Of a stretch of 64,000 nt of DNA, positions 6,540 through 59,312 are shown piece by piece. Position 1 is the first letter of the stretch, and each line of letters begins with the position of its first letter. Made by a program: the position numbers and the translations under genes. The notes below the pieces were generated by a model, which saw only the letters and a list, made by a program, of their open reading frames with translations, had not been told where the DNA came from and searched no databases. The stretch is from Bulleidia sp. Lineage in GTDB: Bacteria; Bacillota; Clostridia; Oscillospirales; Ruminococcaceae. The stretch spans positions 85,521 through 149,520 of the forward strand of contig CAVKDR010000006.1 in NCBI GenBank assembly GCA_963655125.1. Direction: 5' to 3'.

Positions 6540-7469
6540 ATGCAGCAGCAAACGATTGAAACTCTGTGCCACGCCTTGCAGGAAAGTGCCCTGCCGTTTG
6601 CCCAGCAGGAGCCTTTGGCCGCCCATACCACGTTCCAGATCGGCGGCCCGGCGGTGTTTTGGTGTACACCGAAAAACGTGGAGCAGCTGCGCCGTACGCT
6701 GGCGCTCTACCGGGAAAACGGTGTGCGCACCTACCTTTTGGGCAACGGCTCCAACACGCTGTTTGCGGATGAGGGCTATGACGGTGCAGTCATCGATCTG
6801 CGCGGGCTGAACTTCGGCCCCACGGCCGAACCGCAGCCGGATGGTTCCACCCGCCTTGCGGCAGGCGCGGGCCTTACGCTGGGGCGGCTTTGTGCCTTTG
6901 CCCAGCAGCAGGGCCTTGCGGGACTGGCCTTTGCCTGCGGCATCCCCGGCACCATCGGCGGGGCTGTTTACATGAACGCCGGTGCCTACGGCGGCGAGAT
7001 GAAGGACGTGCTGGAAAGCGTGACCTTTTTGGACAGTGACCTCAACGAGCGCACACTGCCCGCCGCAGAATTGGCCCTGGGCTACCGCACCAGCCTGTTT
7101 GAGCAGCACCCCGATTGGTGTGTGCTTTCGGCCACGGTGCGTCTGCGCCCAGGCGACAGCGCCGCCATTCTGGCGGAAATGCAGGACTATCTGCAGCGCC
7201 GCAAAGACAAACAGCCACTGGAATGGCCCAGCGCGGGCAGTACGTTTAAGCGCCCCCAGGGGGCCTTTGCGGGCAAGCTGATCGAGGACTGCGGCCTGCG
7301 GGGTTTTACCGTGGGCGGTGCCCAGATCAGCGAGAAGCACTGCGGCTTTGTCATCAACCGCGGCGGTGCGACCTGCGCCGATGTGGTCAGCCTGACCGGC
7401 CAGGTCAAGGCCATTGTGCTGCAAAAAACCGGCTATACGCTGGAGCGGGAGATCCGCGTAGTAAAATAA
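6540..7469 (+). CDS. murB: UDP-N-acetylenolpyruvoylglucosamine reductase
   Basis: FAD-binding N-terminal region (FQIGGPA) and MurB C-terminal domain (GSTFKRP..GAQISEKH); canonical neighbourhood upstream of rapZ. Confidence 0.85.
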   Translation: MQQQTIETLCHALQESALPFAQQEPLAAHTTFQIGGPAVFWCTPKNVEQLRRTLALYRENGVRTYLLGNGSNTLFADEGYDGAVIDLRGLNFGPTAEPQPDGSTRLAAGAGLTLGRLCAFAQQQGLAGLAFACGIPGTIGGAVYMNAGAYGGEMKDVLESVTFLDSDLNERTLPAAELALGYRTSLFEQHPDWCVLSATVRLRPGDSAAILAEMQDYLQRRKDKQPLEWPSAGSTFKRPQGAFAGKLIEDCGLRGFTVGGAQISEKHCGFVINRGGATCADVVSLTGQVKAIVLQKTGYTLEREIRVVK

Positions 7470-7485
7470 AGGTGGGGGAGTACGC

Positions 7486-8349
7486 ATGAAATTTGTGATC
7501 GTAACGGGCCTGTCCGGCGCGGGCAAATCGATGGCCGTCAACGCGCTGGAGGACATTGGTTTTTTCTGCATCGATAATATTCCGCTGGCATTGCTGCCCC
7601 GTATCGTGGACTTTGCCCTGCAGGGCGAAAACCAGCTGAACCGCGTAGCCGTTGTGATGGACGTGCGCGGTGTGCGCAGCAGCGAGCAGCTGGAGCAGGC
7701 ACTTTCCGACCTGGATGCCCGCCAGTTTGAGTACGAGATCCTTTTCCTCGATGCCAACGATGCGGTTATCCAGCGCCGCTATAAGGAGACCCGCCGCCAG
7801 CACCCCATCACCATCAGCGAAAAAGTGCCCATCACCGAGGCCATCGCCCGGGAGCGCCGCCTGCTGCAGCCGCTGCGGGCGCGGGCGCAGTATGTCATTG
7901 ATACTTCGCTGCTCAGCACCGCCCAGAACAAGGAGCGGGTGTGCAGCCTGTTTTTGGACCACGGTGAAAGCCCGATGGCCCTCACGGTGGTGTCTTTCGG
8001 TTTTAAGTACGGCCTGCCGCAGGAGGCAGACCTTGTGCTGGATGTCCGCTGCCTGCCCAACCCGTTCTACGTGCCGGAACTGAAAAACCTGACCGGTATG
8101 GATCAGGAAGTGGTGGATTACGTCATGGCTGCCCCCGAGTCCCAGGAACTGCTGCGCCGTTACGAAAGCATGCTGGAATACGCCCTGCCGCTCTACGTCA
8201 AGGAGGGCAAAAGCCAGCTGATGATCGCGGTAGGCTGCACCGGCGGCAAGCACCGTTCCATCACTTTTGCGCGTAAAATCGGCGAGTTCTGCGAAAAACT
8301 GGGCTACGAACCCAGTGTGCAGCACCGCGATGCCAAGCGCACCTTATAA
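7486..8349 (+). CDS. rapZ: RNase adapter / nucleotide-binding protein RapZ (YvcJ)
   Basis: MKFVIVTGLSGAGKSMAVNALEDIGFFCIDNIP Walker A; full-length family match. Confidence 0.9.
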   Translation: MKFVIVTGLSGAGKSMAVNALEDIGFFCIDNIPLALLPRIVDFALQGENQLNRVAVVMDVRGVRSSEQLEQALSDLDARQFEYEILFLDANDAVIQRRYKETRRQHPITISEKVPITEAIARERRLLQPLRARAQYVIDTSLLSTAQNKERVCSLFLDHGESPMALTVVSFGFKYGLPQEADLVLDVRCLPNPFYVPELKNLTGMDQEVVDYVMAAPESQELLRRYESMLEYALPLYVKEGKSQLMIAVGCTGGKHRSITFARKIGEFCEKLGYEPSVQHRDAKRTL

Positions 8350-8381
8350 TACGATAAAATTTACGCTTTATCAGGAGTTTT

Positions 8382-9320
8382 ATGAGCTTCTCACAAGATG
8401 TAAAAAATGAGATCCTGCGCCATAGGATCTCCAAACCCTGTTGCTCCGTGGCCGCCGCCTATGCGGTGGCCTGTTTTGGTAAATACTTCGATGACCGCGG
8501 CATCGTTCTGCAGACCGAGAATGAGGGCGTAGCCACTTTTGCCCAAAAGCTGTACCGCCGCTGCGGCATCCGGGGGGATGTCCTGCGTAAGGAGCGCCCC
8601 ACCGGCCCGGTGTTTGAGTTCAGCGTCAAGGATGTGGTGGAAGTCGAGCGTTTGCTGGACCTGTTCGGCCACACCGGCAAGGAGCCGACCCTGCGCATCC
8701 GGCCGGAAAACTTCAAGTGCCAGCACTGTGTGCAGTCCTTCATCGCCACGGCATTTCTCTGCTGCGGCACGATGACCGACCCGGAGAAAAGCTATAACCT
8801 GGAATTCCTCTCCACCCGGCACTACCTCTCCCAGCAGCTGGAAGCCATGCTGGCCGAGCATGACTTCAACCCCCACCGCGCCCTGCGCAAGGGGGCCAAC
8901 ACGGTCTACATCAAATCGGCCGACCATATCGAGGATCTGCTCACTTTCATGGGCGCGGGCAACGCTGCCATGCGCATCATGGACCAGCGTATGTACAACG
9001 ATATGCGCAACAAAACCAACCGCCTTTCCAACTGCGAGACCGCGAACCTGGGCAAAAGCGTCCAGGCCGCCGTGCAGGTGCAGCTGGCCATTGAAAAGCT
9101 GCAGGCCGCCGGTGCCATGAGCACCCTGCCGGAAAACCTGCGCCTGACCGCCAAACTGCGGATGCAGTATCCCGACCTGCCGCTTGCCAAGCTGGCCCAG
9201 AAGTTCGATCCGCCCGTCAGCAAAGCGGGGCTGTCCCACCGCTTAAAGCGCATCCAGGAGGCCGCCCGCCGCCTGGACGAGACCACCCCGGAAACGCCCG
9301 AGAACGCTAAGGAACATTGA
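8382..9320 (+). CDS. whiA: Sporulation/cell-division transcription regulator WhiA
   Basis: N-terminus SFSQDVKNEIL, LAGLIDADG-like region and C-terminal HTH; follows rapZ directly with no yvcK between. Confidence 0.85.
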   Translation: MSFSQDVKNEILRHRISKPCCSVAAAYAVACFGKYFDDRGIVLQTENEGVATFAQKLYRRCGIRGDVLRKERPTGPVFEFSVKDVVEVERLLDLFGHTGKEPTLRIRPENFKCQHCVQSFIATAFLCCGTMTDPEKSYNLEFLSTRHYLSQQLEAMLAEHDFNPHRALRKGANTVYIKSADHIEDLLTFMGAGNAAMRIMDQRMYNDMRNKTNRLSNCETANLGKSVQAAVQVQLAIEKLQAAGAMSTLPENLRLTAKLRMQYPDLPLAKLAQKFDPPVSKAGLSHRLKRIQEAARRLDETTPETPENAKEH

Positions 9321-9322
9321 CC

Positions 9323-12300
9323 ATGCCTGAAACCACCCAAAGACAATTTACCCACCTGCATGTGCATACCGAGTACAGCCTGCTGGACGGTGCCTGCCGC
9401 ATTGACCGCCTGTTTGACCATATCAAGGCGATGGGGCAGACGGCCTGCGCCATCACTGACCACGGCGTTATGTACGGCTGTGTGGCGTTTTTTGATGCCG
9501 CCAAGGCGGCAGGCATCAAGCCCATCATTGGCTGCGAGGTCTATGTAGCGACCCGCACCCGCTTTGATAAGGTCAACCGTATCGATGGCAACAACCACCT
9601 GATTTTGCTGTGCAAAAACGAGACGGGCTACAAAAACCTGATCAAGATGGTCTCCGCCGGCTTTACCGAGGGTTTCTACTCCAAGCCCCGCATCGATAAG
9701 GACCTGCTGGAACAGTACCACGAGGGGCTGATCTGCCTGTCCGCCTGCCTGGCGGGCGAGATCCCCCAGGCGATCCTGGCAGGGGACTACGAGCGCGCGA
9801 AGCAGGCGGCGCTCTACTACCGCGACCTGTTCGGCGAGGGAAACTATTATATTGAATTGCAGGACCACGGCCTGGAGGAGGACCAGGTTGTGCTGCCCCA
9901 GCTGATCCGCCTGGCGCGGGAGACCGGCATCCCCATGGTCGCCACCAACGATGCCCACTACATCACCAAAGAGGATGCCAAGATGCAGAGCATTCTGCTT
10001 TGCATCCAGACCGGCAAGACCATCGCCGATGCCGACCGCATGGAGTTCCAGACGGACGAGTTCTACCTCAAAAGCACCGATGAGATGTACGACCTCTTTT
10101 CGATGGCGCCGGAAGCCTGCGAGAACACCAATAAAATCGCAGAGCAGTGCAATTTTGAGTTCACCTTCGGCGAAACCAAGCTGCCTTATTTCAAAGCTCC
10201 CGATGGCATGGAAAACCAGGCATACTTCGAGAAGCTTTGCTGGGAGGGCCTGGAACGCCGCTACCCCGGCAAGGTCACGGACGCGCTGAAAGAGCGCCTT
10301 TCCTACGAGATCAACGTTGTCAAGACGATGGGCTACACCAACTACTACCTCATCGTCTACGACTTTATCAACTACGCCAAAAGCCGGGATATCCCGGTAG
10401 GCCCCGGCCGTGGTTCCGGCGCGGGCAGCCTGGCGGCCTACTGTGTCGGCATCACCGATATCGACCCCATCCGCTATAACCTCATCTTTGAACGTTTCCT
10501 GAACCCCGAACGTGTCTCGATGCCCGACTTCGATGTCGACTTCTGCTACGAGCGCCGCCAGGAAGTCATCGATTACGTCAACGAAAAGTACGGCCGCGAC
10601 CACGTCGCCCAGATCGTCACCTTTGGTACGATGGCCGCCCGCGCCGCCGTGCGCGATGTGGGCCGCGTCATGGGCATGCCCTACCAGGATGTGGACCGCG
10701 TGGCGAAACTGATCCCCATGGAACTGAAGATGACGCTGAAAAAGGCGCTGGAGGTCAGCCCCGACCTGAAAGCGCTGTACGACAGCGACAGCCAGGTCCA
10801 CGAACTGATCGATACTTCGTTAAAGGTCGAGGGCATGCCCCGCCATGCCTCCACCCACGCCGCAGGCGTTGTCATTACCCGTGAACCGGCCACCGAGTAC
10901 GTGCCGCTGTCCACCAACGATGGCCTGCCGGTCACCCAGTTCAACATGGTGGAGATCGAGCGTCTGGGCCTGCTCAAGATGGACTTCCTGGGCCTGCGCA
11001 CCCTGACCGTCATCCATGATACCGAGATGGCTGTCCGCCACACTAAGGACCCGGATTTCCGGGTGGCGAACATCGACTACGATGATCCCGCCACCTACGA
11101 GATGCTGACCCGCGGCGAGACGATGGGCATCTTCCAGCTTGAATCTACCGGCATGACCCAGGTGCTGATGAGCATGCGCCCGAAAAACCTCGAAGATGTC
11201 ATCGCCCTGATCTCACTCTACCGCCCCGGTCCCATGGATTCCATCCCGACCTATCTGCGCAACAGAAAGGACCCGTCCAAGGTCGTGTACCAGACCCCGC
11301 AGATGGCCCATATCGTGGATGTGACCAACGGCGTTGTCATTTATCAGGAGCAGGTCATGCAGATCTGCCGCGAGTTGGCAGGCTTCAGCTTCGGCCAGGC
11401 CGATAACGTCCGCCGTGCCATGAGTAAGAAAAAACTCAAAGTCATGGAGGCCGAGCGCGAACATTTTGTCCATGGCTGCACCGAGCCGGGCAAGGAGTGC
11501 GCGGGCTGTGTCAAAAACGGCATCCCCGAAAGCGTAGCAAACCAGATCTACGATGATATGATCAGTTTTGCCTCCTACGCCTTCAATAAATCCCACGCGG
11601 CCTGCTATGCCTACGTGGCGTTCCAGACGGCCTACCTCAAGTGCCATTACCCCCACGAGTTTATGGCCGCCCTGCTGACCAGTGTGCTCGATAATACGTC
11701 CAAAGTCATCGAGTATACCTCCGAGTGCCAGCGCCTGGGCATCAAGGTCCTGCCGCCGGATATCAACGTTTCCCGCGGCGGCTTCACCGTGGACGGTGAC
11801 AGCATCCGCTTCGGCCTGAATGCCGTCAAGAGCGTGGGCCGCAACCTCATCGATTCGGTGGTCAAGGAGCGCAAAGACCGCCCCTACCGCAGCCTGTACG
11901 ATTTTTGCAAGCGGCTGCACGGCAACGAACTGAACCGCCGCGCGTTGGAAAACCTCGTCAAGGCAGGCTCCTTCGATGCGTTGGAACCCAGCCGCCGTGC
12001 GATGATCGACAGCGCCGAGGGCATCCTGAAAAGCGTTGAGACCGATGCCCGCCAGAACCTGGAAGGCCAGATGGATCTTTTCGGCATGATGGGCGGGGAA
12101 CAGGAGCAGGCTGCCAGCGATTACAAGATCCCCAACACGCCGGAATATCCCGCCAGCGAACTGCTCAAAATGGAAAAAGAGGTCTCCGGCCTCTACCTGT
12201 CCGGCCACCCGCTGGATGCCTACCGCACCCAGATCAGCCAGATCTCCACCTGCACCATTGCCGATCTACAGGGCGAGGATGCCAAGCGTTTTGACAACCA

Positions 12301-12862
12301 GAACGTTACAATTCTTTGCACGGTCGTCAAAAATAAGATCATGACCACCAAGTCCAACACGCTGATGGCCTTTACCACCGTGGAGGATCTGACTGGTACG
12401 ATGGAACTGCTGATCTTCCCGCGCGTCCTGGCCGAGTGCCGCGCCGCCCTGCAGGAGAATGCAGTTGTGGTCGCCAACGGCCGTGTCTCTGTCAAAGAGG
12501 AAGAAGCCGCCCGCCTGATCGTGGAGGGTGTGCAGCCAATCGAGCACTACGACCCGAATCAGAGTTTCGGCAAAAACCGTGTGGAAAAAGTCCGCCGCGA
12601 GACCAGCGGGGGAGAAGCCACCGGCTATTTCCTGACGGTGCCCAGCCGCCAGGGCCCGGAGATGCACAAGGTGGAAAACCTGCTGTGCAACATCTTTGAC
12701 GGCGGCACCGTCAAGGTCTATTTCCGCTTTGCGGACACCGGCCAAAAGGTGCTGGCCCGCCATATGGCCATCAAGGATGATCCGCTGCTGCGCGCCGAAT
12801 TGGAGCGTATTTTAGGTAAAGACCATGTAAAAGTTCAGATGGCTGAACAAAATGCAAAATAA
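9323..12862 (+). CDS. dnaE: DNA polymerase III alpha subunit
   Basis: N-terminal PHP domain (HLHVHTEYSLLDG), polymerase core and OB-fold; ATG at 9323 preceded by AAGGA. The track's 9317 start is an in-frame TTG. Confidence 0.92.
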   Translation: MPETTQRQFTHLHVHTEYSLLDGACRIDRLFDHIKAMGQTACAITDHGVMYGCVAFFDAAKAAGIKPIIGCEVYVATRTRFDKVNRIDGNNHLILLCKNETGYKNLIKMVSAGFTEGFYSKPRIDKDLLEQYHEGLICLSACLAGEIPQAILAGDYERAKQAALYYRDLFGEGNYYIELQDHGLEEDQVVLPQLIRLARETGIPMVATNDAHYITKEDAKMQSILLCIQTGKTIADADRMEFQTDEFYLKSTDEMYDLFSMAPEACENTNKIAEQCNFEFTFGETKLPYFKAPDGMENQAYFEKLCWEGLERRYPGKVTDALKERLSYEINVVKTMGYTNYYLIVYDFINYAKSRDIPVGPGRGSGAGSLAAYCVGITDIDPIRYNLIFERFLNPERVSMPDFDVDFCYERRQEVIDYVNEKYGRDHVAQIVTFGTMAARAAVRDVGRVMGMPYQDVDRVAKLIPMELKMTLKKALEVSPDLKALYDSDSQVHELIDTSLKVEGMPRHASTHAAGVVITREPATEYVPLSTNDGLPVTQFNMVEIERLGLLKMDFLGLRTLTVIHDTEMAVRHTKDPDFRVANIDYDDPATYEMLTRGETMGIFQLESTGMTQVLMSMRPKNLEDVIALISLYRPGPMDSIPTYLRNRKDPSKVVYQTPQMAHIVDVTNGVVIYQEQVMQICRELAGFSFGQADNVRRAMSKKKLKVMEAEREHFVHGCTEPGKECAGCVKNGIPESVANQIYDDMISFASYAFNKSHAACYAYVAFQTAYLKCHYPHEFMAALLTSVLDNTSKVIEYTSECQRLGIKVLPPDINVSRGGFTVDGDSIRFGLNAVKSVGRNLIDSVVKERKDRPYRSLYDFCKRLHGNELNRRALENLVKAGSFDALEPSRRAMIDSAEGILKSVETDARQNLEGQMDLFGMMGGEQEQAASDYKIPNTPEYPASELLKMEKEVSGLYLSGHPLDAYRTQISQISTCTIADLQGEDAKRFDNQNVTILCTVVKNKIMTTKSNTLMAFTTVEDLTGTMELLIFPRVLAECRAALQENAVVVANGRVSVKEEEAARLIVEGVQPIEHYDPNQSFGKNRVEKVRRETSGGEATGYFLTVPSRQGPEMHKVENLLCNIFDGGTVKVYFRFADTGQKVLARHMAIKDDPLLRAELERILGKDHVKVQMAEQNAK

Positions 12863-28153: not shown

Positions 28154-29800
<1,647 letters not shown>

Positions 29801-29829
29801 GCGGTACAAACCCCATAAATAACTAATAG

Positions 29830-29872
29830 CCCCCGGCACCTGCCTGAACAGCAGGTGCCGGGGGCTTTGTTG
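29830..29872. terminator. Bidirectional terminator between convergent groEL and the XRE gene
   Basis: 14 bp perfect stem cccccggcacctgc / gcaggtgccggggg with a 7 nt loop, U-runs on both sides. Confidence 0.8.
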
Positions 29873-29897
29873 TACTTGTCTATTTAAAAAGTAATGA

Positions 29898-30206
29898 TCA
29901 GATCGTATCCGTTTTGTTTTTGTTCTTTAGATGGGCGATTAAATAGTGGATGGCTTGAATATCGGATTCCGTTAGTCCGTCTACACTGACGGTTGCTGAA
30001 CTTTCAAGCCCCAACAAATAATCCGTAGATACTTTGAAAATGTTTGCTAGTTCTACAAGGTACTGGGTGGAGGGCACGGAGATCCCCATTTCCCACGCGT
30101 TTACACTGGAGCGGGTGATTCCCAGCTGTTTGGCCAGTTCAGCTTGCGTCATAACGTTCTGTTCGCGCAGATGCCGGATCCTATAGGAAATCATCACATC
30201 AGCCAT
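29898..30206 (-). CDS. XRE-family (Cro/C1-type HTH) transcriptional regulator
   Basis: MADVMISYRIRHLREQNVMTQAELAKQLGITRSSVNAWEMG HTH-XRE signature. The ATG is at 30206; the track extension to 30338 is unsupported. It lies in the low-GC island, divergent from the operon. Confidence 0.75.
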   Translation of the reverse strand: MADVMISYRIRHLREQNVMTQAELAKQLGITRSSVNAWEMGISVPSTQYLVELANIFKVSTDYLLGLESSATVSVDGLTESDIQAIHYLIAHLKNKNKTDTI

Positions 30207-30245
30207 GGAATTTTTCACCCCTTTGGATGTATAGTAGAACAAACT

Positions 30246-30274
30246 AAATGATATTGCATTATCAAAATGATATT
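30246..30274. promoter_or_regulatory. Candidate operator: two direct AAATGATATT repeats (19 bp apart) embedding a TGATATTGCATTATCA near-palindrome, in the divergent XRE/operon promoter region
   Basis: Repeats at 30246-30255 and 30265-30274; the second overlaps the -35 TTGACA of the +-strand promoter (TTGACA-N17-TACAAT at about 30279-30307). Confidence 0.35.
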
Positions 30275-30369
30275 TATAATTGACAATTGATTTAGCCATG
30301 CTACAATAAAGATAGCGAAAAAGCCTGCAAGATGGCAAACTCCAAAATCAAAGGAAAGAGGGAAAATTT

Positions 30370-31410
30370 ATGAGTTTGGTTACCATGAAATGCCCCAGCT
30401 GTGGCGGAACACTTGAACTGGACAGCACAAAAGAATTCGGTTTCTGCATTTACTGTGGAACAAAGGTGAGAATCCAGGATGAAAAAACGAGAGTAGAAGT
30501 TTCCGGACGCGTTAAGTTTGATGAGACGGAAAAGTATAAGAACTTTCTGAACCTGGCAAATCAGGCTTATGCAAATGGAAATGTTGGCGAAGCGTATGAT
30601 TATTACACAAAAGCGCTTGAAATCCGGCAGGACGACTATCTGCCTGTGTTCCGTAAAGGCCTGTGTGCAGGCTACCTTTCCAGCGAGAACGGCCTTCGCG
30701 TAGAAGAAGTGGTGGCAGGTGTATCGCATGGCTTCGACATGGCACCGGATAAAAAGGCCTGTCAGAATATGTCTGATGAGATTGTGACTTTTGTTGTAAA
30801 TCACGGCGCACCGCGCAACGATGGATTTTATAGTTCTGATGATTGCGCACGGTATGTGAAAGCTGTTTACAGCCGGGCTAATTTGTTGAACCGTTTGTAC
30901 CGGTTCATTGACCAGGAAAATGTGGATGACGTTATTACTTATATCGAAGCGGTTCTGGATTGCTGCCAGCGGGTTAATTCCTCGGTCATGAAGTTCTCTG
31001 CCGGGACATCGGTAAAGAAAGGCAAGGCCGAAACGGTCTACGGAACCTACCCGGTGCCGCAGAACATTACACATGAAATGGCAGATCTGAACAAAAAGTT
31101 TACAGTTGAGTATAACAAGTTTATTGAGCCGAGAGTGAAAAAGGCGGAGCGGGAAGTTGAGAATATCAAAAAGAAAATCGATGCACTCCCAGTGGTGCAG
31201 AAAATTGCGCATTATGTGTGCAACTGGTGGGTGTTCCTGCTGGGTTTGCTCTTGGTAAATAGCATTGGCATGGTCATCTGGATGGCTCAGCTGATTCTGC
31301 TTGCAGTGGCAAAAGTGACTGACAAAAATGGCACTACAAAGAGCCTGTATACAGAGTTGAAGAAAAAGAAGAAAGAATTGGCCGCCCTGAAAAAGCAACT
31401 TAAAAAGTAA
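30370..31410 (+). CDS. Zinc-ribbon / TPR-like / C-terminal TM tail-anchored protein (YdjG-like), function unknown
   Basis: N-terminal CPSCGG..N12..CIYCG zinc ribbon, helical TPR-like middle, single TM (WWVFLLGLLLVNSIGMVIWMAQLILLAV), Lys-rich coiled-coil tail. Low GC. Confidence 0.55.
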   Translation: MSLVTMKCPSCGGTLELDSTKEFGFCIYCGTKVRIQDEKTRVEVSGRVKFDETEKYKNFLNLANQAYANGNVGEAYDYYTKALEIRQDDYLPVFRKGLCAGYLSSENGLRVEEVVAGVSHGFDMAPDKKACQNMSDEIVTFVVNHGAPRNDGFYSSDDCARYVKAVYSRANLLNRLYRFIDQENVDDVITYIEAVLDCCQRVNSSVMKFSAGTSVKKGKAETVYGTYPVPQNITHEMADLNKKFTVEYNKFIEPRVKKAEREVENIKKKIDALPVVQKIAHYVCNWWVFLLGLLLVNSIGMVIWMAQLILLAVAKVTDKNGTTKSLYTELKKKKKELAALKKQLKK

Positions 31411-31427
31411 AGCGGAGAGAACAGGCT

Positions 31428-32573
31428 ATGGCGATTTTTGAAGTAATCAAATACGAAGGGGACAATAGCACCTTCGTTTGGAAACACCCTGCCGAAGATT
31501 TTAATACAAAGTCGCAGCTGATCGTGCACGAAACCCAGGAGGCACTTCTTTTCAAAAATGGTGTTGCGCTAGACTTGTTTCCTGCAGGGCGCTATACCCT
31601 GGATACACAGAACATTCCTCTGCTTCGGAAATTCGTAAATCTTCCTTTTGGCGGCGTGTCTCCGTTCCATTGCGAAGTGTATTTCATCAACAAAGTCGTT
31701 TCGATGGATGTGCTGTGGGGAACAAGTTCTCCAATCCCTGTCAAGGATGCGCAGTATGGCATTATTCTACCGGTAGGTGCCAATGGGCAGTTCGCTGTTC
31801 AGATTGAGGACAGCAGAAAGTTCATCACTACCATGATGGGCACGGTGCGGGAGTTTAATCAAGCAACGCTCACAAACGCATTCCGTGGCATCCTGATGAC
31901 AAAAATCAAGGACTATATTGCCAACCAATTTGTCAAAGAAAAAATTACATTCTTGGAGATCAATGCGCATATCGAGAGCATCTCCCAGGCAATCCAAGAA
32001 AAGCTTTCGGCTGAATTTGCCCAGTATGGCATCCGTCTGGTCAACTTTAACGTAAATGCTATTTTTGTGCCGGAAAGCGACCCCTCTTATCTGCGCCTGA
32101 AAGCTGCACTGGCCAGAAAAGCTGAAATGAACATTGTGGGCTACAATTACCAGCAGGAAAGAACCTTTGATGTGCTGGAAGGTGCGGCCAAAAACGAGGG
32201 CACCGGCGCTGGAGTCATGGGGGCAGGTATGGGCCTTGGCATGGGTGCAAACCTTGGCAGTGTGATTAGTGCCGCCTTTGGCGGGGCAATTGCTTCTATT
32301 GATGTAAAAGAAACGGCACCCCAAAAGGCAGAACGAGTATGCAGAAAATGCGGCGCAAAACTGCCGGAAAACGCCAAATTCTGCTTTGAGTGCGGAGAGA
32401 AAGCTGTTCTCGATGAGACGGTGATCTGCCCGAATTGCAAGGAGCCGACACCCAAAGGAAAGTTCTGCCTGCATTGCGGACACAGGCTTACCGTTACATG
32501 CCCACAATGCGGCGCAAGCCTAACACCGGGTGCGAAATTTTGCCCGGAATGTGGGGAAAGATTAGGTAACTGA
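31428..32573 (+). CDS. SPFH/Band-7 (Band_7_1-like, YdjI-like) protein fused to three C-terminal zinc ribbons
   Basis: N-terminus AIFEVIKYEGDNSTFVWKHP matches the SPFH Band_7_1 start pattern. There is a Gly-rich linker and CRKCG..CFECG, CPNC..CLHCG, CPQCG..CPECG ribbons. It sits 18 bp after the previous gene. Confidence 0.6.
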   Translation: MAIFEVIKYEGDNSTFVWKHPAEDFNTKSQLIVHETQEALLFKNGVALDLFPAGRYTLDTQNIPLLRKFVNLPFGGVSPFHCEVYFINKVVSMDVLWGTSSPIPVKDAQYGIILPVGANGQFAVQIEDSRKFITTMMGTVREFNQATLTNAFRGILMTKIKDYIANQFVKEKITFLEINAHIESISQAIQEKLSAEFAQYGIRLVNFNVNAIFVPESDPSYLRLKAALARKAEMNIVGYNYQQERTFDVLEGAAKNEGTGAGVMGAGMGLGMGANLGSVISAAFGGAIASIDVKETAPQKAERVCRKCGAKLPENAKFCFECGEKAVLDETVICPNCKEPTPKGKFCLHCGHRLTVTCPQCGASLTPGAKFCPECGERLGN

Positions 32574-32575
32574 GT

Positions 32576-32953
32576 ATGAAAAATAAAGTATATCTGGCTG
32601 TAAGTGCAATCCTTACAGTACTTGTAACGGTGGCGATGTTTCTGCTTTGGCCGGGTAGAGATGGCGTGTTCTGGACGATTTATATCTTTTCAAATCTTGC
32701 AATTTGGAGCGTAGGTGCTAACGCTGCCTACATGTCAGCGGAAAATAAATCGTTTGCAGCAAATTTAATGGTAGTTACGGTATCCGTTGTATATCTTGTA
32801 GTAAGTGTTGTATGGTCGGTTCTGTCAGTTGCAATCCTTGCTGCAAGCACTACGCTTTGCCTGGTAGGACATATTGTTCTCTTGGGAATCTTCCTGATTC
32901 TATGGCTTCTTGCCAAAGTGGCGGCAAAATATATCAATAGCCAGGATAACTAA
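32576..32953 (+). CDS. Small 4-TM membrane protein, unknown function
   Basis: 125 aa, entirely hydrophobic helices; start 3 bp after the SPFH gene stop (translational coupling). Confidence 0.5.
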   Translation: MKNKVYLAVSAILTVLVTVAMFLLWPGRDGVFWTIYIFSNLAIWSVGANAAYMSAENKSFAANLMVVTVSVVYLVVSVVWSVLSVAILAASTTLCLVGHIVLLGIFLILWLLAKVAAKYINSQDN

Positions 32954-32959
32954 AATCAA

Positions 32960-32998
32960 GCCCTGCATCCGCCGCAAACGGATGCAGGGCTTTTGTTT
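32960..32998 (+). terminator. Rho-independent terminator closing the island operon
   Basis: gccctgcatccg-ccgcaaa-cggatgcagggc followed by ttttgtttgt. Confidence 0.8.
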
Positions 32999-33064
32999 GT
33001 ATTTTGCCCCGCCTTGTGCTATACTAAATAAATCTTACGATTTTGTGCAAGGGGGGACTGCGCC

Positions 33065-33535
33065 ATGAAAAACCACGCCAAATATCTGGCCCTGGCCGTT
33101 ACACTGGGCATCATGGCGCTGATCTTCTTTTTTTCGTCCCAGCCGGGGGAGACTTCCTACCAGCTCAGCGGTGCGGTGGCAAATACCGTGCAGCACAGCA
33201 AAGTCTCGACTATCACGCCGTCCTGGTTCAATGCCCAGAACTTCAACGCCAACATCCGCAAATGGGCGCATGTGTATATTTACTGCGCGCTGGGTGTCAG
33301 CATGGCGGTCACCGTGCACCTTTGGACACACCGCATCGCCCTGTGGCAGCAAGGGCTGCTGGCGGCGGCGCTTTGTACGCTGTACGCCATATCGGATGAA
33401 ATCCACCAATACTTCGTCCCCGCCCGCGCCATGCTGCTGACCGATGTAGGCATCGATGCTTTCGGCTTTCTGCCCTGCATCGCTGTGACCTGTCTCATCA
33501 TCTGGTGCGTGACCCGCAAAAAAGCAAAACAATAA
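33065..33535 (+). CDS. VanZ-like family membrane protein
   Basis: ISDEIHQYFVPARAMLLTDVGIDAFGF motif typical of VanZ-like proteins; 4-5 TM. Confidence 0.6.
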   Translation: MKNHAKYLALAVTLGIMALIFFFSSQPGETSYQLSGAVANTVQHSKVSTITPSWFNAQNFNANIRKWAHVYIYCALGVSMAVTVHLWTHRIALWQQGLLAAALCTLYAISDEIHQYFVPARAMLLTDVGIDAFGFLPCIAVTCLIIWCVTRKKAKQ

Positions 33536-33589: not shown

Positions 33590-35203
33590 GTGTCATTGCG
33601 GCGGCTTACGGGGCTATGCTGTGCGCTGGCGGTGCTGGCGGCGGTCATGCTGGCACGGGTGTACTGGGTGGGCACCGATACTACCTATGCGGCCAGCGCC
33701 GGGCGGCAGACCACCCAAACCACCGAACTGCCCCGCGCTCGCGGCAACTTCCTGGACCGCACCGGCCGCCCGCTGACCGGCACCGCCGCCACCTGCTACG
33801 CTCTCTGCATCCCTGGCGGCAACAGCTATTCGGCGCTGCTGCCCTACGTGTCCTACCAGGCGCAGACCTTATTGTACGAGCGCCGCAATTCCACCAGCCC
33901 CTTTTTAATAGAGATCGGCCCAACCAGTGCCCCGGCGGATGTGCTGCTGCTGGACCAGCCCCGCCGCCCACTGCCCAGCCCCATTGCTGTGCATCTGTTG
34001 GGCTACCTTGACCAGGAAAACCACGGTGTCACCGGCCTGGAACGCGCCTGGGATGCCGTACTGGCCGAATCCTGCGACCAGACCGCCGCTATCTGCCAGA
34101 CCACCGCCCGCGGGCGGCTGCTGGGCAACGGCACACCGGAGATCATCACCGAACAGCAGGGCACAGGGGCCCAGGTGAAACTGACCCTTGATGCCGACAT
34201 CCAGCGCTTGTGCGAGGGCCTTGCCCAGCTGTATATGACCCGGGGCTGCATCCTTGTCATGGACACCGCCACCGGCGAAATTTTAGCCAGCGTCAGCATG
34301 CCGGAGTACGACCCCGATGATGTGGCCCGCAGCATCCGCGCCGATGATACCTCGCTGGTCAACCGGGCGTTTTCCACTTTCAGTGTTGGTTCGGTGTTCA
34401 AGGTGGCGGCGGCGCTGGCCGCTTACGAGAACGGCCTCGACTGGTTCACCCACGACTGCACCGGCAGCATTGAGGTGGACGGTCAGACCTACCGCTGTGC
34501 TCTGGGCAAGGCCCACGGCACGGTCAACCTGCGCGGCGCGCTGGAACAAAGCTGCAACACCTACTTTGTAGCCCTGGGCCAAATCTTGGGCGGGCAGGCC
34601 CTGCGCACCGCGGCCACTGAGCTGGGCTTCGGCACCGCTGTGCCCATCGCTCCGGACCTGACCGCCAGTGCCGGGATTCTGCCCACCGCCAAAGAACTGC
34701 AAAGCACCGGCCAGCTGGCGGTGTTCAGCTTTGGGCAGGGCAGCTTCACCGCCACGCCCCTGCAAATTACGGCCATGATGAACACCATCGCCAACGGCGG
34801 CACCTACCACACGCCGCGCTTTTGCACTGGCATTGCCGATGCAGACGGGAACATTACCGACCCATTTCAACTTCCCGCGCCCCGCACCGTCTGCGATACG
34901 GCCACCGCCAAAGCCTTGCGCAGTATGCTGCAAAGCGTGGTCGAGGATGGCATCGGAACCGCCGCCAAACCCAACGGCGGCACCGCCGCAGGCAAGACCG
35001 GCACGGCCCAGACCGGCCAGTTTGACGCGGCAGGGGACGAACTGCTCAACTACTGGTTCAGCGGCTTCACCCCGGCGGAAAAGCCGAAATATACCATCAC
35101 GGTTTTGCAGGACGGTGTGCTGGAACCCGAAACTTCCAGCGCTGCCCTCTTTGCCAAAATCGCCGAAGGGCTGCAGGTGATTGAACAGCCTGCACCTGAC
35201 TGA
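33590..35203 (+). CDS. Penicillin-binding protein (class B transpeptidase)
   Basis: SVGSVFK (SxxK), SCN (SxN) and KTGTA motifs; N-terminal TM anchor; GTG start. Confidence 0.85.
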   Translation: MSLRRLTGLCCALAVLAAVMLARVYWVGTDTTYAASAGRQTTQTTELPRARGNFLDRTGRPLTGTAATCYALCIPGGNSYSALLPYVSYQAQTLLYERRNSTSPFLIEIGPTSAPADVLLLDQPRRPLPSPIAVHLLGYLDQENHGVTGLERAWDAVLAESCDQTAAICQTTARGRLLGNGTPEIITEQQGTGAQVKLTLDADIQRLCEGLAQLYMTRGCILVMDTATGEILASVSMPEYDPDDVARSIRADDTSLVNRAFSTFSVGSVFKVAAALAAYENGLDWFTHDCTGSIEVDGQTYRCALGKAHGTVNLRGALEQSCNTYFVALGQILGGQALRTAATELGFGTAVPIAPDLTASAGILPTAKELQSTGQLAVFSFGQGSFTATPLQITAMMNTIANGGTYHTPRFCTGIADADGNITDPFQLPAPRTVCDTATAKALRSMLQSVVEDGIGTAAKPNGGTAAGKTGTAQTGQFDAAGDELLNYWFSGFTPAEKPKYTITVLQDGVLEPETSSAALFAKIAEGLQVIEQPAPD

Positions 35204-35540: not shown

Positions 35541-35576
35541 CCGTCACCGTAAATCAATGGATTGGAGAACACACAC

Positions 35577-38234
35577 ATGCAATGGACAGGACTTAACGAA
35601 CTGCGCGAAAAGTATCTGCATTATTTCGAGACCAAAGGCCACCTGCGCCTGGGCAGCTTCCCGCTGGTGCCGAAAGACGACCCCAGCCTGCTGCTGATCA
35701 ACAGCGGCATGGCCCCCATGAAGAAATGGTTCCTCGGCCAGGAAGAACCGCCGCGCCACCGCGTGACCACCTGCCAGAAGTGCATCCGTACCCCGGATAT
35801 TGAGCGCGTCGGCATCACCGCCCGCCATGGCTGCTTCTTTGAGATGCTGGGCAACTTCAGCTTCCAGGATTACTTCAAGAAAGAGGTCATTCCCTGGGCT
35901 TGGGAGTTCCTGACCAAAGAGCTGGAGATCCCCGCCGATAAGCTGTACATCTCCGTCTATCAGGACGACGACGAGGCTTACGATATCTGGACCAAGTCCG
36001 TTGGCATCCCTGAGGACCACATGGTCCGCCTGGGCAAAGAAGATAACTTCTGGGAGCATGGCTCCGGTCCCTGCGGCCCCTGCTCTGAGATCTACTATGA
36101 TCGCGGCCTGAAGTGTGGCTGCGGTAAGCCCACCTGCGGTGTTGGCTGCGACTGCGACCGCTTCATGGAGATCTGGAACCTGGTGTTCAGCCAGTACGAT
36201 GCTGACGGCAAGGGCAACTATGAACTGCTGGCCAAGCCCAACATCGATACCGGTATGGGTCTGGAGCGTTTGGCTGTTGTCATGCAGGATGTCAACAACC
36301 TGTTCGAGGTCGACACTGTTGCCGCTGTTCTGCACCATGTCGAGCGCCTGGCCGGTAAGACCTACGGCGAGAACGACAAGGACGACATCTCCATCCGCGT
36401 TATCACCGACCACATCCGCGCCACGGTCTTTATGGCATCCGATGGCATCCTGCCCTCCAACGAGGGCCGCGGCTACGTCATGCGCCGTCTGCTGCGCCGC
36501 GCTGCCCGCCATGGCCGTATGCTGGGCATCAACCGCCCGTTCCTGACCGAACTGGTCGACACCGTCATTGAGTCCAGCGAGGCCGGTTATCCCGAACTGC
36601 GTGAGCACGAAGCCTATATCAAGAAGGTCATCGGCACCGAGGAACTGCGCTTCGGCCGCACCATCGATGCCGGTCTGAACATCCTGAACGGCATGATGAG
36701 CCACCTGAAAGAAGTCCACGAGAAGGTCCTGTCCGGCGCGGAAGTGTTCAAGCTGAACGACACCTTCGGCTTCCCCCTCGACCTGACCCGCGAGATCGCC
36801 GCCGAGGCAGGTCTGGCTGTTGACGAGGCCGCTTTCCATGTGGAGATGACCAAGCAGCGTGAGCGCGCCCGCGCCGAGCGCCTGGCGAAGGATATCTCCG
36901 GTTGGAGCGCCGACCTGTTCGGTGAACTGACCGCCGAGGCCACCCAGTTTGACGGCTACGACACGCTGAGCGAGTCCGCTAAGGTCATCGCCCTGTCTGA
37001 CGGCGAGGAGCTGGCCGATGCCATTGCCACCGATGAGGCAGGCGAGAGCAAGGACGGTGTGCTGGTCGTGCTGGACCGCACCCCGTTCTACGCCGAGATG
37101 GGCGGCCAGGTCGCTGACCACGGCTACATCACCAACGGCGATGCCAAGCTGAAAGTCACCCAGGTCAAAAAGACCCCCAAGGGCTATTTTGTCCATACCT
37201 GCGAACTGCTGGATGGCACCATCCATGTGGGCGATGAAGTCACCGCTTCCGTTGACACCCAGCGCCGCATGGCCATCTGCCGCAACCACACCGCCACCCA
37301 CCTGCTGCAGAAAGCCCTGCGCGAGGTCCTGGGCGAGCATGTCCACCAGGCCGGCAGCTATCAGGATGATAAGCTGACTCACTTCGACTTCACCCACTTC
37401 AGCGCCGTCACCCCCGAGGAACTGCGCAAGGTCGAGGACCGCGTCAACGAGAAGATCTTCGAGGCTCTGCCCGTCACCATCCAGAACCTGCCCATCGAGG
37501 AAGCTAAGAAGATGGGCGCTATGGCTCTGTTCGGCGAGAAGTACGGCAGCGTTGTCCGCGTGGTTGACGCTGGCGGCTGGAGCACCGAGTTCTGCGGCGG
37601 CACCCACGTCACCAACACCGCACAGATCGGCTGCTTCAAGATCCTCAGCGAGTCCAGCGTGGCCGCTGGCATCCGCCGTATCGAGGCCACCACCGCTTAC
37701 GGTGTGCTGAACCTGCTGGATGAGCGCACCGAGCAGCTGGCTAAGACCGCCGTTGCCCTGAAGGCCAACAACCTGAAGGATGCTCCGGCCCGCGCCGAAG
37801 CCCTGACCGCTGAACTGAAAGAGACCAACAAGCAGCTGGATATCCTGAAAGCTGAGATGGCTTCCGCCAAGATCGATGGCCTGTTCGAGAATGCTGCCGA
37901 CATCGATGGTGTGCGCATCGTCTCTGCCTACCTGACCGGTACCGGCGCTGACACCCTGCGCGACATGGTCGATAAGGTCCGCGACAAGGCCCCCAACGCT
38001 GTCACCGTTCTGATCGGCAGCGATGGAAATAAGACCATGATGGCTGTTGGTGTTTCCAAGAACGCCCTGGCCCGCGGCCTGAAAGCCGGTGCCCTTGTCA
38101 AGAAGATCGCCGCAATCGCAGGCGGCAACGGCGGCGGCAAGCCCGATTTCGCCATGGCCGGTATCCGCGATACCTCCAAGATCGATGATGCCTTGAACGC
38201 CGTGCCCGAGATCGTCAAAGCGGAAATGCAGTAA
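35577..38234 (+). CDS. alaS: Alanine--tRNA ligase
   Basis: Full-length AlaRS with catalytic, editing (HTATHLL) and C-terminal DHHA1 domains; ATG 35577 is 9 nt after GGAG. Confidence 0.95.
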   Translation: MQWTGLNELREKYLHYFETKGHLRLGSFPLVPKDDPSLLLINSGMAPMKKWFLGQEEPPRHRVTTCQKCIRTPDIERVGITARHGCFFEMLGNFSFQDYFKKEVIPWAWEFLTKELEIPADKLYISVYQDDDEAYDIWTKSVGIPEDHMVRLGKEDNFWEHGSGPCGPCSEIYYDRGLKCGCGKPTCGVGCDCDRFMEIWNLVFSQYDADGKGNYELLAKPNIDTGMGLERLAVVMQDVNNLFEVDTVAAVLHHVERLAGKTYGENDKDDISIRVITDHIRATVFMASDGILPSNEGRGYVMRRLLRRAARHGRMLGINRPFLTELVDTVIESSEAGYPELREHEAYIKKVIGTEELRFGRTIDAGLNILNGMMSHLKEVHEKVLSGAEVFKLNDTFGFPLDLTREIAAEAGLAVDEAAFHVEMTKQRERARAERLAKDISGWSADLFGELTAEATQFDGYDTLSESAKVIALSDGEELADAIATDEAGESKDGVLVVLDRTPFYAEMGGQVADHGYITNGDAKLKVTQVKKTPKGYFVHTCELLDGTIHVGDEVTASVDTQRRMAICRNHTATHLLQKALREVLGEHVHQAGSYQDDKLTHFDFTHFSAVTPEELRKVEDRVNEKIFEALPVTIQNLPIEEAKKMGAMALFGEKYGSVVRVVDAGGWSTEFCGGTHVTNTAQIGCFKILSESSVAAGIRRIEATTAYGVLNLLDERTEQLAKTAVALKANNLKDAPARAEALTAELKETNKQLDILKAEMASAKIDGLFENAADIDGVRIVSAYLTGTGADTLRDMVDKVRDKAPNAVTVLIGSDGNKTMMAVGVSKNALARGLKAGALVKKIAAIAGGNGGGKPDFAMAGIRDTSKIDDALNAVPEIVKAEMQ

Positions 38235-58616: not shown

Positions 58617-58692
<76 letters not shown>

Positions 58693-58716
58693 AGAAGTGC
58701 GTGTCTTTCGTGACAG

Positions 58717-58752
58717 CTTATTTAGTATAGCAGACGACACGTGCCATGTCAA
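58717..58752 (-). promoter_or_regulatory. Promoter for tRNA-Ala copy 1 (TTGACA-17-TATACT on minus strand)
   Basis: Plus-strand tgtcaa at 58747-58752 and agtata at 58724-58729. Confidence 0.7.
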
Positions 58753-58926
58753 GCATGTTTTTTGCAAAAATTGAAAATATTTGCAAATTTTCGCTGTAGG
58801 GGCCGATGCTTGCCATCGGCCCGCCATCTGCGCACACCCGGCATATCGTAGGGGCGGATTCCATATCCGCCCGCAAAACAGGGAATACAAACAAAAAAGA
58901 CCGCAACTTCCGTTGCGGTCTATATC

Positions 58927-59002
<76 letters not shown>

Positions 59003-59236: not shown

Positions 59237-59312
<76 letters not shown>

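Follow-up and report, generated by a model that had tools for sequence, protein, structure and literature searches.

The 64-kb window analysed here (the whole stretch of 64,000 nucleotides from Bulleidia sp.) contains a short island of low GC content between groEL and vanZ, and the locus raises the question of where this island came from and what its genes do. The island consists of four genes, a divergent XRE repressor gene and a three-gene operon encoding proteins of 346, 381, and 125 aa (Table 1). In the initial annotation, it was described as a self-contained, horizontally acquired, and possibly phage-defence-like module.

Table 1. Coordinates of the island genes, the candidate control region, and the border hairpins within the window.
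Feature	Position	Strand	Basis
Left boundary: bidirectional intrinsic terminator hairpin	29828..29866		16-17 bp perfect stem, 13 GC pairs, T-runs on both strands
XRE-family HTH repressor, 102 aa, C-terminal helical tail of ~35 aa	29898..30206	-	HTH_3 2.2e-15, HTH_19 2.4e-12
Putative operator and divergent promoter core	30250..30307		Promoter scan, 11/12 and 10/12 matches
Adaptor/anchor protein, 346 aa	30370..31410	+	Zinc ribbon, TPR-like, membrane hairpin
SPFH (Band_7_1) scaffold protein, 381 aa	31428..32573	+	Band_7_1 4.1e-42
Small polytopic membrane protein, 125 aa, ~4 TM	32576..32953	+	Hydropathy
Right boundary: operon terminator hairpin	32958..32992		14-16 bp stem, then T-run

The GC content of the island (29880-32957) was 0.455, compared with 0.592 across the remainder of the window, and the island was the GC minimum among all 3078-bp windows of the 64-kb stretch (0.458; mean 0.584, sd 0.030, about 4 sd below the mean). 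GC3 was 0.38-0.54 in the four island genes, as against 0.72-0.81 in clpP, clpX, groES, groEL, vanZ, PBP, and alaS. A genome-typical composition is thereby excluded, and the initial estimate of about 45% GC between flanks of about 60% was borne out. The two strong terminators said to bracket the island were located as perfect-stem hairpins. The left hairpin serves groEL and, on the opposite strand, the convergent XRE gene, and shares homology with the sole groEL terminator of a related site that lacks the island (L024). The right hairpin is related to the groEL terminator, and in the sister species near-identical copies of the hairpin are present at both island ends. At L002, the island is flanked by a 42-nt direct repeat whose copies are 93% identical and spaced 3113 bp apart, the same arrangement surrounds it at L040, and the L002 sequence past the right hairpin is the continuation of the L024 empty-site sequence. 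The duplicated terminator hairpin of the sister strains was the only mobility signature of the islet. Terminal inverted repeats were not found at the island borders, nor was an adjoining tRNA at the island or a recombinase/integrase ORF within it.

Comparison with relatives located the insertion. In eight related Gemmiger/Subdoligranulum genomes, groEL and vanZ directly adjoin each other, 94-181 bp apart (empty sites at L008, L010, L015, L017, L024, L025, L030, and L031), which agrees with the proposal that the insert interrupts a core gene order and excludes an ancestral cassette at this site. The site is empty in L024 despite GroEL and AlaS identities of 99% and 98%, respectively, to the window. 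In another high-GC genome (L045), the cassette (XRE, 347 aa, SPFH, and 126 aa) is found at an unrelated locus, after PTS/HAD genes, and is also a low-GC patch (GC 0.50 versus 0.62-0.64 in the flanks). The island thus has the properties of a horizontally acquired islet, namely deviant composition, absence from the site in relatives, and presence at another site elsewhere. Horizontal acquisition of the four-gene cassette as a self-contained module is well supported because relatives have empty sites, the same cassette occurs at another locus, and both GC and GC3 deviate.

The untranslated gaps within the operon are 17 nt and 2 nt, so that the tight coupling claimed initially holds and the counts (18 and 3 bp) are corrected. 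The XRE gene is oriented divergently from the operon and has the Shine-Dalgarno sequence AAGGGGTG ahead of its ATG at 30206; the best NCBIfam match of its product was the RstR phage repressor family (2e-15, under the cutoff). The XRE proteins of sister strains share 93-96% identity with this product, and the one in the L045 cassette, at the other locus, shares 69%. The direct repeats and near-palindrome reported for the shared intergenic region correspond to the 14-bp near-palindrome GATATTGCATTATC (30250-30263) and an additional GATATT at 30269-30274. Two promoter-like sites stand face to face: TTGACA-16-TACAAT on the plus strand (30280-30307), with the operon -35 TTGACA at 30280-30285 and an extended -10 TGcTACAAT at 30299-30307, and TTGTCA-17-GATAAT on the minus strand (30286-30258), with the -35 of the XRE gene at 30281-30286 and its -10 at 30258-30263. 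A 36-nt operator core, GATATTGCATTATCAAAWWGATATTTATAATTGACA, is kept in the window, L002, L040, and L045, of which the L045 proteins are just 40-76% identical. The XRE gene and operator travel together with the operon, in keeping with the XRE-linked control suggested before. The XRE protein most probably binds the GATATT-type operator, and as a repressor it would control both promoters because the operator overlaps the -10 of the XRE gene and abuts the -35 of the operon.

The 381-aa protein is a member of the Band_7_1 family (PF13421, 144.7 bits versus a cutoff of 24, residues 24-217), and matches the classical Band_7 family weakly, at 36.5 bits. It comprises an SPFH domain and helix (about 24-250), a Gly-rich low-complexity linker (255-290), and three Cys4 zinc ribbons (305-375) formed by six CxxC motifs, with Zn_ribbon_3, DZR, and Zn_Ribbon_1 matches at 1e-14 to 1e-18; the Pfam profile search therefore confirmed both parts of the assignment made initially. 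Foldseek with a low-confidence AF2 model (pLDDT 59) retrieved only stomatin, flotillin, HflK/C, prohibitin, and QmcA assemblies (probability 1.0, E 1e-8 to 1e-4), and the model predicts the SPFH alpha/beta fold and long helix, like ring- or cage-forming stomatin, flotillin, and HflK/C. No hydrophobic or TM segment was found in this protein (hydropathy maximum 1.36). The claim that all three operon products are membrane-associated consequently stands for the 346-aa and 125-aa proteins, which are integral, and is modified for the SPFH protein, which is predicted to be soluble or peripheral.

About 8000 homologues of the SPFH protein were retrieved, and among the matches listed 120 of 120 carried SPFH and zinc-ribbon Pfam domains at similar length. 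The corresponding clostridial genes, which carry no assigned function or system name and are annotated by domain name alone as 'SPFH domain-containing protein' (Band_7_1 with DZR/Zn_ribbon) or, by JGI, as 'membrane protease subunit, stomatin/prohibitin family', share the length and architecture of the window protein at 56-95% identity (120 listed), as well as a neighbouring zinc-ribbon partner and small TM protein. The window gene belongs to this widespread clostridial group and does not differ from it in kind; at 90% clustering, it groups with RefSeq WP_300676270.1 (uncultured Gemmiger sp.). Given this number of homologues and their shared layout, the architecture is common, and the earlier statement that no named system matches is only partly right. 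The partner proteins are not YdjG or YdjH orthologues.

The 346-aa adaptor contains, in order, a Cys4 zinc ribbon (1-34), a TPR-like helical repeat domain (53-201), a beta-hairpin (206-228), a long helix (231-271), a hydrophobic membrane hairpin (283-317), and a Lys-rich C-terminal helix. Its gene is mosaic and hypervariable within one species, the C-terminal half being 55-71% identical between conspecific strains that otherwise share 97-100% identity. The 125-aa protein is almost wholly hydrophobic, with a conserved C-terminal YINSQD motif, and had no family match in Pfam, NCBIfam, PHROGs, or PADLOC. With a local HMM, homologues were found 3' of the SPFH gene in L004, L045, L052, L046, L062, L064, L065, and L069; those of L052 and L046 have an extra cytoplasmic tail with a common 'RYSDPM' motif. 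Many Clostridia have the triad of SPFH-zinc-ribbon protein, zinc-ribbon partner, and small 4-TM protein. A partner with a zinc ribbon, or with zinc ribbon and TPR, adjoins the SPFH gene at 19 of 22 loci, and a protein resembling the 125-aa product is present at 12 of the 22. This linkage was seen in Gemmiger and Sedimentibacter, on a Butyrivibrio plasmid, and in IMG/VR elements, with varying gene order.

The parallel to B. subtilis ydjFGHI, drawn in the initial annotation, is correct according to the literature (PMC8581546, PMC11237479). YdjI is a soluble protein whose localisation depends on two membrane proteins, the zinc-ribbon-bearing YdjG and YdjH (PMC8581546, PMC11237479); it also binds PspA and is required for PspA foci (PMC8581546). 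YdjG has two zinc ribbons, an NTF2/YpeB-like domain, and a TM segment, and YdjH has a TPM domain (PMC11237479). SamGH is kept in check by SamI, a phenotype that does not require PspA (bioRxiv 10.64898/2026.02.06.704340). The association of SPFH proteins with ESCRT-III has been described as ancient (PMC10936438).

The window module shares with PspA-YdjGHI (SamGHI) a three-part organisation, in which the SPFH gene is accompanied by genes for two membrane proteins, one of them membrane-anchored and with a zinc ribbon at its N terminus. Like YdjI/SamI, compared here by its published description, the window SPFH protein combines predicted solubility, a low-complexity linker, and C-terminal zinc ribbons; the suggestion that the ribbons are 'instead' fused to the SPFH protein, unlike in Bacillus, was thus mistaken. 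The window protein has three ribbons and YdjI one. The partner has one ribbon, a TPR-like domain, and a membrane hairpin where YdjG has two ribbons and the NTF2/YpeB-like domain, and the third protein, essentially four TM helices with no Pfam or NCBIfam match, stands in place of a TPM-domain protein; orthology of the 346-aa protein to YdjG and of the 125-aa protein to YdjH was accordingly rejected. The analogy therefore rests on the SPFH-zinc-ribbon component and the overall organisation. Further differences are a G-I-H-like gene order, a cassette-borne XRE repressor rather than sigma-W, and a mobile, low-GC module rather than a chromosomal core one. The operon includes no pspA, unlike PspA-YdjGHI, and in line with the initial annotation none was found in the island, the 64-kb window (a weak test), or about 20 related neighbourhoods, using Pfam lists and phmmer with an approximate E. 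coli PspA query. As in E. coli QmcA-YbbJ (SPFH-NfeD) and HflK/C-FtsH, whose QmcA and HflK/C assemblies were the top structural matches of the low-confidence SPFH model, an SPFH-fold protein would be expected to assemble into a ring or cage that lies against the membrane and surrounds a membrane partner encoded alongside it. The window SPFH protein differs from both in having no N-terminal TM anchor, and neither an NfeD (OB-fold) nor a protease domain was found in either window partner protein, which sets the operon apart from SPFH-NfeD operons.

The cassette is best read, at a probability of roughly 55%, as a variant of the SamGHI-type SPFH membrane module that is mobile, controlled by XRE, and lacks PspA. 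The 346-aa protein would be held in the membrane by its hydrophobic hairpin, with the zinc-ribbon and TPR-like domains in the cytoplasm, and the 125-aa protein would sit in the bilayer. The soluble SPFH protein would be recruited to both and may oligomerise as a ring or cage on the inner membrane face, enclosing or restraining its membrane partners; this is proposed because such behaviour has been shown for YdjI/SamI with YdjG/H, HflK/C-FtsH, and QmcA-YbbJ. With no PspA dedicated to it, the module probably serves membrane-stress sensing or stabilisation, or it gates its 4-TM partner.

It is very improbable that the island is instead a native, vertically inherited operon with a low GC content due to membrane-protein composition, or a non-functional remnant. 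Borders without an integrase, tRNA, or terminal inverted repeats and fixation at one site in several sister strains would suit a native operon, but GC3 depends little on amino-acid composition and falls by 0.25-0.4, and the empty site in eight relatives, one with 99% GroEL identity, and the same cassette at another place in another genome also argue against it. A remnant is at odds with four intact, conserved ORFs, a near-consensus promoter, and Shine-Dalgarno sequences. The module might also be a functional equivalent of YdjGHI that recruits a PspA/ESCRT-III protein from an unlinked gene of the genome, for which the binding of PspA by YdjI (PMC8581546) and the ancient SPFH-ESCRT-III association (PMC10936438) speak. 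This is considered unlikely: pspA was missing from all of the approximately 20 neighbourhoods sampled, a genome-hopping cassette cannot count on a host PspA, and the 2026 SamGHI preprint reports PspA-independent phenotypes (bioRxiv 10.64898/2026.02.06.704340).

A somewhat less doubtful alternative is a mobile-element conflict module that serves anti-phage defence, abortive infection, or superinfection exclusion. The 4-TM protein would be an effector that damages the membrane and is kept inactive by the SPFH assembly around it, phage or MGE cues would be sensed by the hypervariable TPR adaptor, and XRE would keep expression low until infection. Mobility and XRE control fit such a role, as does the adaptor variability, a pattern common in conflict genes. 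Several relatives also have suggestive neighbours: an SPFH module of 60% identity that has an XRE gene of its own and directly follows genes for an endolysin, two large serine recombinases, and a tyrosine integrase (L060); a triad beside SbcC-like, PLD, and ResIII-helicase genes (weak LmuB, DrmC, and PbeA matches) and a serine recombinase (L064); a protein with a BnzA-like N-terminus (6.8e-14; L062); and, on Butyrivibrio plasmid pNP21, a position between an R-M S subunit with a recombinase and a YoeB/RelB pair. These prophage- or recombinase-bearing elements and the hypervariable adaptor gene are circumstantial hints of defence. Against this, no significant PADLOC-DB v2 model matched the three operon proteins (best 0.008-0.015, partial; LeoBC at 0.008 and PD-T4-6 at 0.014 are noise), and XRE matched generic HTH models only, so that the likeness to defence systems is a generic one, of an XRE/HTH protein resembling CapH and other control proteins within a small cassette on mobile DNA. 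PHROGs matches were restricted to the zinc ribbons, and there was 1 weak match in 50,697 phage genomes and 11 loci in 2.9 million IMG/VR contigs. The window cassette lies outside any defence island, the Sedimentibacter triad has native GC and ordinary neighbours, and no paper ties SPFH proteins of the Band_7_1-zinc-ribbon type to phage defence. The phage-defence-like character suggested initially thus found no specific match. A speculative and improbable extension is that the cassette and the wider triad represent a previously undescribed class of mobile immunity or exclusion systems that act at the membrane, independently of PspA/ESCRT-III and gated by XRE, with an SPFH cage checking a pore-forming or depolarising 4-TM effector and the hypervariable TPR adaptor recognising invader cues. 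Mobility, XRE control, adaptor hypervariability, and prophage-end relatives fit an accessory or conflict role at least as well as housekeeping stress for the PspA-less SPFH module favoured here.

To our knowledge, work on YdjI/SamI-type SPFH proteins has been confined to B. subtilis, always with PspA nearby. The SPFH-zinc-ribbon architecture is already known from YdjI/SamI, and on the best reading the novelty lies in its PspA-less, mobile, XRE-controlled variant. An SPFH-zinc-ribbon protein with a zinc-ribbon membrane adaptor is a portable unit that is widespread in gut Clostridia, lacks PspA, has its own repressor, and moves between genomes. This compact four-gene system offers a handle on the stand-alone role of SPFH assemblies, be it stress sensing, gating of small membrane proteins, or defence, and the strain-level mosaicism of the adaptor raises the question of conflict-type selection on the module in the human gut.

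In 400-bp windows, the GC fraction was 0.39-0.52 between 29.88 and 32.96 kb and approximately 0.55-0.67 on either side. The whole island (29880-32957) has a GC fraction of 0.455, compared with 0.592 for the remainder of the window, and it forms the minimum among all 3078-bp windows of the 64 kb (0.458; mean 0.584, sd 0.030). GC3 was 0.38-0.54 for the four island genes and 0.72-0.81 for clpP, clpX, groES, groEL, vanZ, the PBP gene, and alaS, and therefore the deviation is not explained by amino-acid composition. The AT-rich island described in the initial annotation is confirmed by this profile, and the two strong terminators said to bracket it were found as perfect-stem, T-tailed hairpins at both ends. 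The island consists of an XRE gene and a divergent operon encoding a 346-aa protein (the adaptor), a 381-aa Band_7_1 protein with zinc ribbons (SPFH-ZnR), and a 125-aa protein with four transmembrane helices (TM125), collectively referred to here as the triad; the untranslated gaps between the operon genes are 17 and 2 bases. An Rfam search returned a single sub-threshold match to an archaeal sRNA, which lies over a terminator. Elsewhere in the window, three tRNA-Ala(GGC) genes are arranged in tandem on the minus strand (58617-59312) with a spacing of exactly 310 bp.

Features of the groEL-alaS region (window coordinates)
Feature	Position	Strand	Description
groEL	28169-29800	+	
Left terminator hairpin	29828-29866		perfect stem, T-tailed
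XRE gene	29898-30206	-	102 aa
Operon promoter	30280-30307	+	extended -10, near-consensus; TTGACA-16-TGcTACAAT
Adaptor ORF	30370-31410	+	346 aa
SPFH-ZnR ORF	31428-32573	+	381 aa
TM125 ORF	32576-32953	+	125 aa
Right terminator hairpin	32958-32992		perfect stem, T-tailed
vanZ	33065-33535	+	
Transpeptidase gene	33590-35203	+	
alaS	35562-38234	+	

Horizontal acquisition of the island, as claimed in the initial annotation, is strongly supported. The flanking PBP gene groups the host with Gemmiger/Subdoligranulum (Oscillospiraceae), and in eight related genomes the site is empty, with a groEL-vanZ gap of 94-181 bp and nothing between; the GroEL, ClpX, and AlaS proteins of one of these genomes (L024) are 98-99% identical to those of the window. 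The same site is occupied in a sister lineage (L002, L040-44, L054-56). A complete cassette (XRE, 347 aa, SPFH of 378 aa, and 126 aa) was found in an unrelated context in locus L045, downstream of PTS and HAD-hydrolase genes, where it again forms a low-GC patch (0.50 versus 0.62-0.64), and Sedimentibacter sp. zth1 carries the three-gene operon without the XRE gene at a native GC of 27-28%. When metagenomes were scanned with the adaptor profile, only four further informative loci emerged, each of them at the Gemmiger site already described. The GC content of the island is thus lower than that of its surroundings and the triad is not a universal core operon fixed beside groEL; a native operon of odd composition was rejected because of the empty sites in relatives and the GC3 drop.

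Searches of the island and its borders revealed neither an integrase nor a neighboring tRNA gene nor terminal inverted repeats. In the sister lineage, near-identical copies of the terminator hairpin are present at both island ends: in L002 they form a 42-nt direct repeat (2568-2609 and 5681-5722; 93% identity, 3113 bp apart), past the right copy of which the sequence runs on as the empty-site sequence of L024, and a similar pair is located at about 7465-7500 and 10598-10632 in L040. In the window, the left hairpin corresponds to the L024 version and the right hairpin to the island version, the latter with two pairing-preserving changes. No recombinase was found near the duplicated hairpins. 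An integron-like cassette was also considered and rejected, as the flanking hairpins resemble ordinary GC-rich, T-tailed terminators and there is no integrase nearby. Across the genus, the groEL-vanZ spacer is apparently variable, with other inserts in other species.

The clpX-groESL-vanZ-PBP order is itself not universal in the Gemmiger/Subdoligranulum genus, because in about half of the species representatives (L009, L011-L014, L016, L018, L022, L026-L028) PBP-alaS has neither groEL nor vanZ upstream within the examined distance of up to 10 kb. A gene for a 314-aa alpha/beta-hydrolase-like protein lies in the groEL-vanZ gap of L021 (8391-9335) and L023, and in L039 (1-3000) vanZ is preceded by a MATE-like transporter gene together with zf-CHC2 primase-like ORFs.

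The SPFH-ZnR protein matched Band_7_1 at 4e-42, well over the gathering score. It contains a Gly-rich low-complexity stretch (residues 255-290) followed by six CxxC motifs that make up three Cys4 ribbons (residues 305-375), and it has no hydrophobic segment and is predicted to be soluble. An AF2 model built from a 15-sequence alignment was of low confidence (pLDDT 59) and was used for fold-level assignment only; in Foldseek searches of PDB libraries, this model matched stomatin, flotillin, HflK/C, prohibitin, and QmcA-YbbJ assemblies exclusively, with a probability of 1.0, and a PDB sequence search with the protein gave no match. The adaptor begins with a Cys4 ribbon, has Pfam TPR matches under threshold, and ends with a beta-hairpin, a 40-residue helix, a hydrophobic hairpin (283-317), and a Lys-rich helix, implying a topology in which all but the membrane-inserted hairpin is predicted to be cytoplasmic. 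TM125 is made up of four hydrophobic helices joined by very short loops and matched no described family among the Pfam, NCBIfam, PHROGs, and PADLOC profiles; the latter three sets contained no specific family for any of the operon proteins. The domains had been called correctly in the initial annotation; the sole point to amend is the SPFH protein, which is predicted to be soluble although all three products had been described there as membrane-associated.

The XRE protein matched HTH_3 at 2e-15, and among named families it comes closest to phage-type repressors, for example RstR and DicA, although none of these matches reaches the cutoff. Its gene is separated from the operon by 163 bp, within which the XRE-gene promoter faces the operon promoter and the two -35 elements overlap. 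The -10 element of the XRE gene (30258-30263) forms part of the near-palindrome GATATTGCATTATC (30250-30263); a near-palindrome had been reported in this shared intergenic region. A 36-nt core, GATATTGCATTATCAAAWWGATATTTATAATTGACA, is shared by the two cassettes of the window and L045, whose proteins show just 40-76% identity, which is the signature of an operator moving together with its repressor; the XRE protein would be expected to bind this operator. A toxin-antitoxin pair with an XRE antitoxin was rejected, as such a system would not be expected to show the divergent arrangement or to include three large structural proteins.

Approximately 8000 homologs of the SPFH-ZnR protein were retrieved, of which the 120 listed agree with it in length and in domain content (SPFH plus zinc ribbon); their only source annotations are 'SPFH domain-containing protein' and 'membrane protease subunit (stomatin/prohibitin family)'. 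RefSeq WP_300676270.1 (uncultured Gemmiger sp.) belongs to the same 90% cluster as the window protein, and this cluster recurs on dozens of gut-metagenome contigs. Judged from these matches, the architecture, although the module had been described as matching no named system, is common rather than unusual. The adaptor family is narrower and faster evolving: a word-based search gave 28 clusters, and a profile search gave 3082 representative clusters at E<=1e-3, falling to 37 at 1e-30; many of these clusters align just through the ribbon and TPR part. A plasmid scan returned mostly distant SPFH proteins (21-28% identity). Linkage of the triad was surveyed using local HMMs over 22 loci carrying an SPFH-ZnR gene. 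An adjacent partner with the N-terminal ribbon motif (M..KCPxCG...D.KEFxFCxxCG) or with a ribbon plus TPR was found in 19 of these, and a TM125-like protein in 12. The gene order was adaptor-SPFH-TM in the window clade, L045, L004, and L052; SPFH-TM-adaptor in L046, L064, L065, and L069; and SPFH-adaptor in L005, L047, L050, L060, and L061. The persistence of linkage through such rearrangement argues for a functional complex of the triad products.

The description of Bacillus subtilis ydjFGHI in the initial annotation was accurate (PMC8581546, PMC11237479). YdjI reaches the membrane only with the membrane proteins YdjG and YdjH and is required for PspA foci (PMC8581546), and according to Ravi et al. 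YdjG combines two zinc ribbons with an NTF2/YpeB-like domain and a TM segment, and YdjH is a TPM-domain protein (PMC11237479). In a 2026 preprint, ydjGHI was renamed samGHI and a SamGH membrane complex restrained by SamI was proposed; PspA was not needed for the developmental phenotype (bioRxiv 10.64898/2026.02.06.704340). In a comparison based on the domains described in the literature and on Pfam membership, the window module shares with YdjGHI an SPFH-linker-ZnR protein, its pairing with a ribbon-bearing membrane adaptor, and a three-part layout. It differs in having three ribbons on the SPFH protein rather than the single ribbon of YdjI, a TPR-like domain in the adaptor where YdjG has an NTF2-like domain, and a bare 4-TM protein in place of the TPM protein YdjH; it also lacks pspA, is mobile, and would be under XRE rather than sigma-W control. 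From these shared and differing features, the module would work like YdjGHI without being an orthologous copy of it. It is not one of the SPFH-NfeD pairs.

The conspecific genomes L040 and L054 are 97-100% identical over approximately 7 kb, comprising the flanks and most of the island, but only 55-71% identical across the C-terminal half of the adaptor gene (window 30867-31455), a level of nucleotide identity at which synonymous sites are saturated. The adaptor gene of the window has a breakpoint at about 30867, and L002 carries the L054 adaptor allele with different XRE, SPFH, and TM125 segments. Among the window, L002, L040, and L054, the nearest relative varies by segment (XRE, adaptor N-half, adaptor C-half, SPFH, and TM125). 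On these identities, the island is a recombination mosaic, and the pattern fits frequent recombination among divergent alleles.

The island is best read, with a probability of roughly 0.55, as a variant of the SamGHI-type SPFH membrane-scaffold module that is mobile, lacks PspA, and is controlled by its XRE protein, from a large but uncharacterized clostridial family. Cooperation of the cassette with an unlinked PspA encoded elsewhere is improbable; pspA was absent from all triad neighborhoods examined by Pfam lists and by phmmer with an approximate E. coli PspA query, the latter being a weak test. A conflict or defense role, in line with the phage-defense-like character originally proposed, is unlikely as well, if slightly less so. 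The direct tests were negative: PADLOC returned nothing for the three operon proteins, PHROGs matches were restricted to the zinc ribbons, one weak match was found among 50,697 phage genomes, IMG/VR contained just 11 loci, and the literature gave no link between this kind of SPFH protein and phage defense.

The hints in favor of such a role are circumstantial. Mosaicism of the island is the most striking of them; it is compatible with conflict-type selection or repeated cassette exchange and does not discriminate between the two. The XRE-SPFH-adaptor module of L060 comes after genes for an endolysin, two large serine recombinases, and a tyrosine integrase, at the end of an integrated element, and on a small Butyrivibrio plasmid a relative is flanked on one side by an R-M specificity subunit and a recombinase and on the other by a toxin-antitoxin pair. 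In L064 (112-6803 and 12955-13407), the triad adjoins genes for an SbcC-like ATPase, a PLD-like protein, and a ResIII/DEAD helicase that show weak similarity to LmuB, DrmC, and PbeA, and a serine-recombinase-like fragment is located close by; this neighborhood may be a defense island on a mobile element. In the IMG/VR locus L062 (UViG_3300005201_000285, 8001-12600), a neighboring 295-aa protein has an N-terminus like that of BnzA of the Bunzi defense system (PADLOC 6.8e-14). It is encoded between tandem SPFH-ZnR paralogs (441 and 434 aa), each followed by a small TM protein, and serine-recombinase-like ORFs, recognized from N-terminal sequence only, lie upstream.

The architecture, which had appeared to be the most surprising feature of the island, is thus common, and the mobility, self-contained regulation, and hypervariable adaptor of the island are real features that merit testing.
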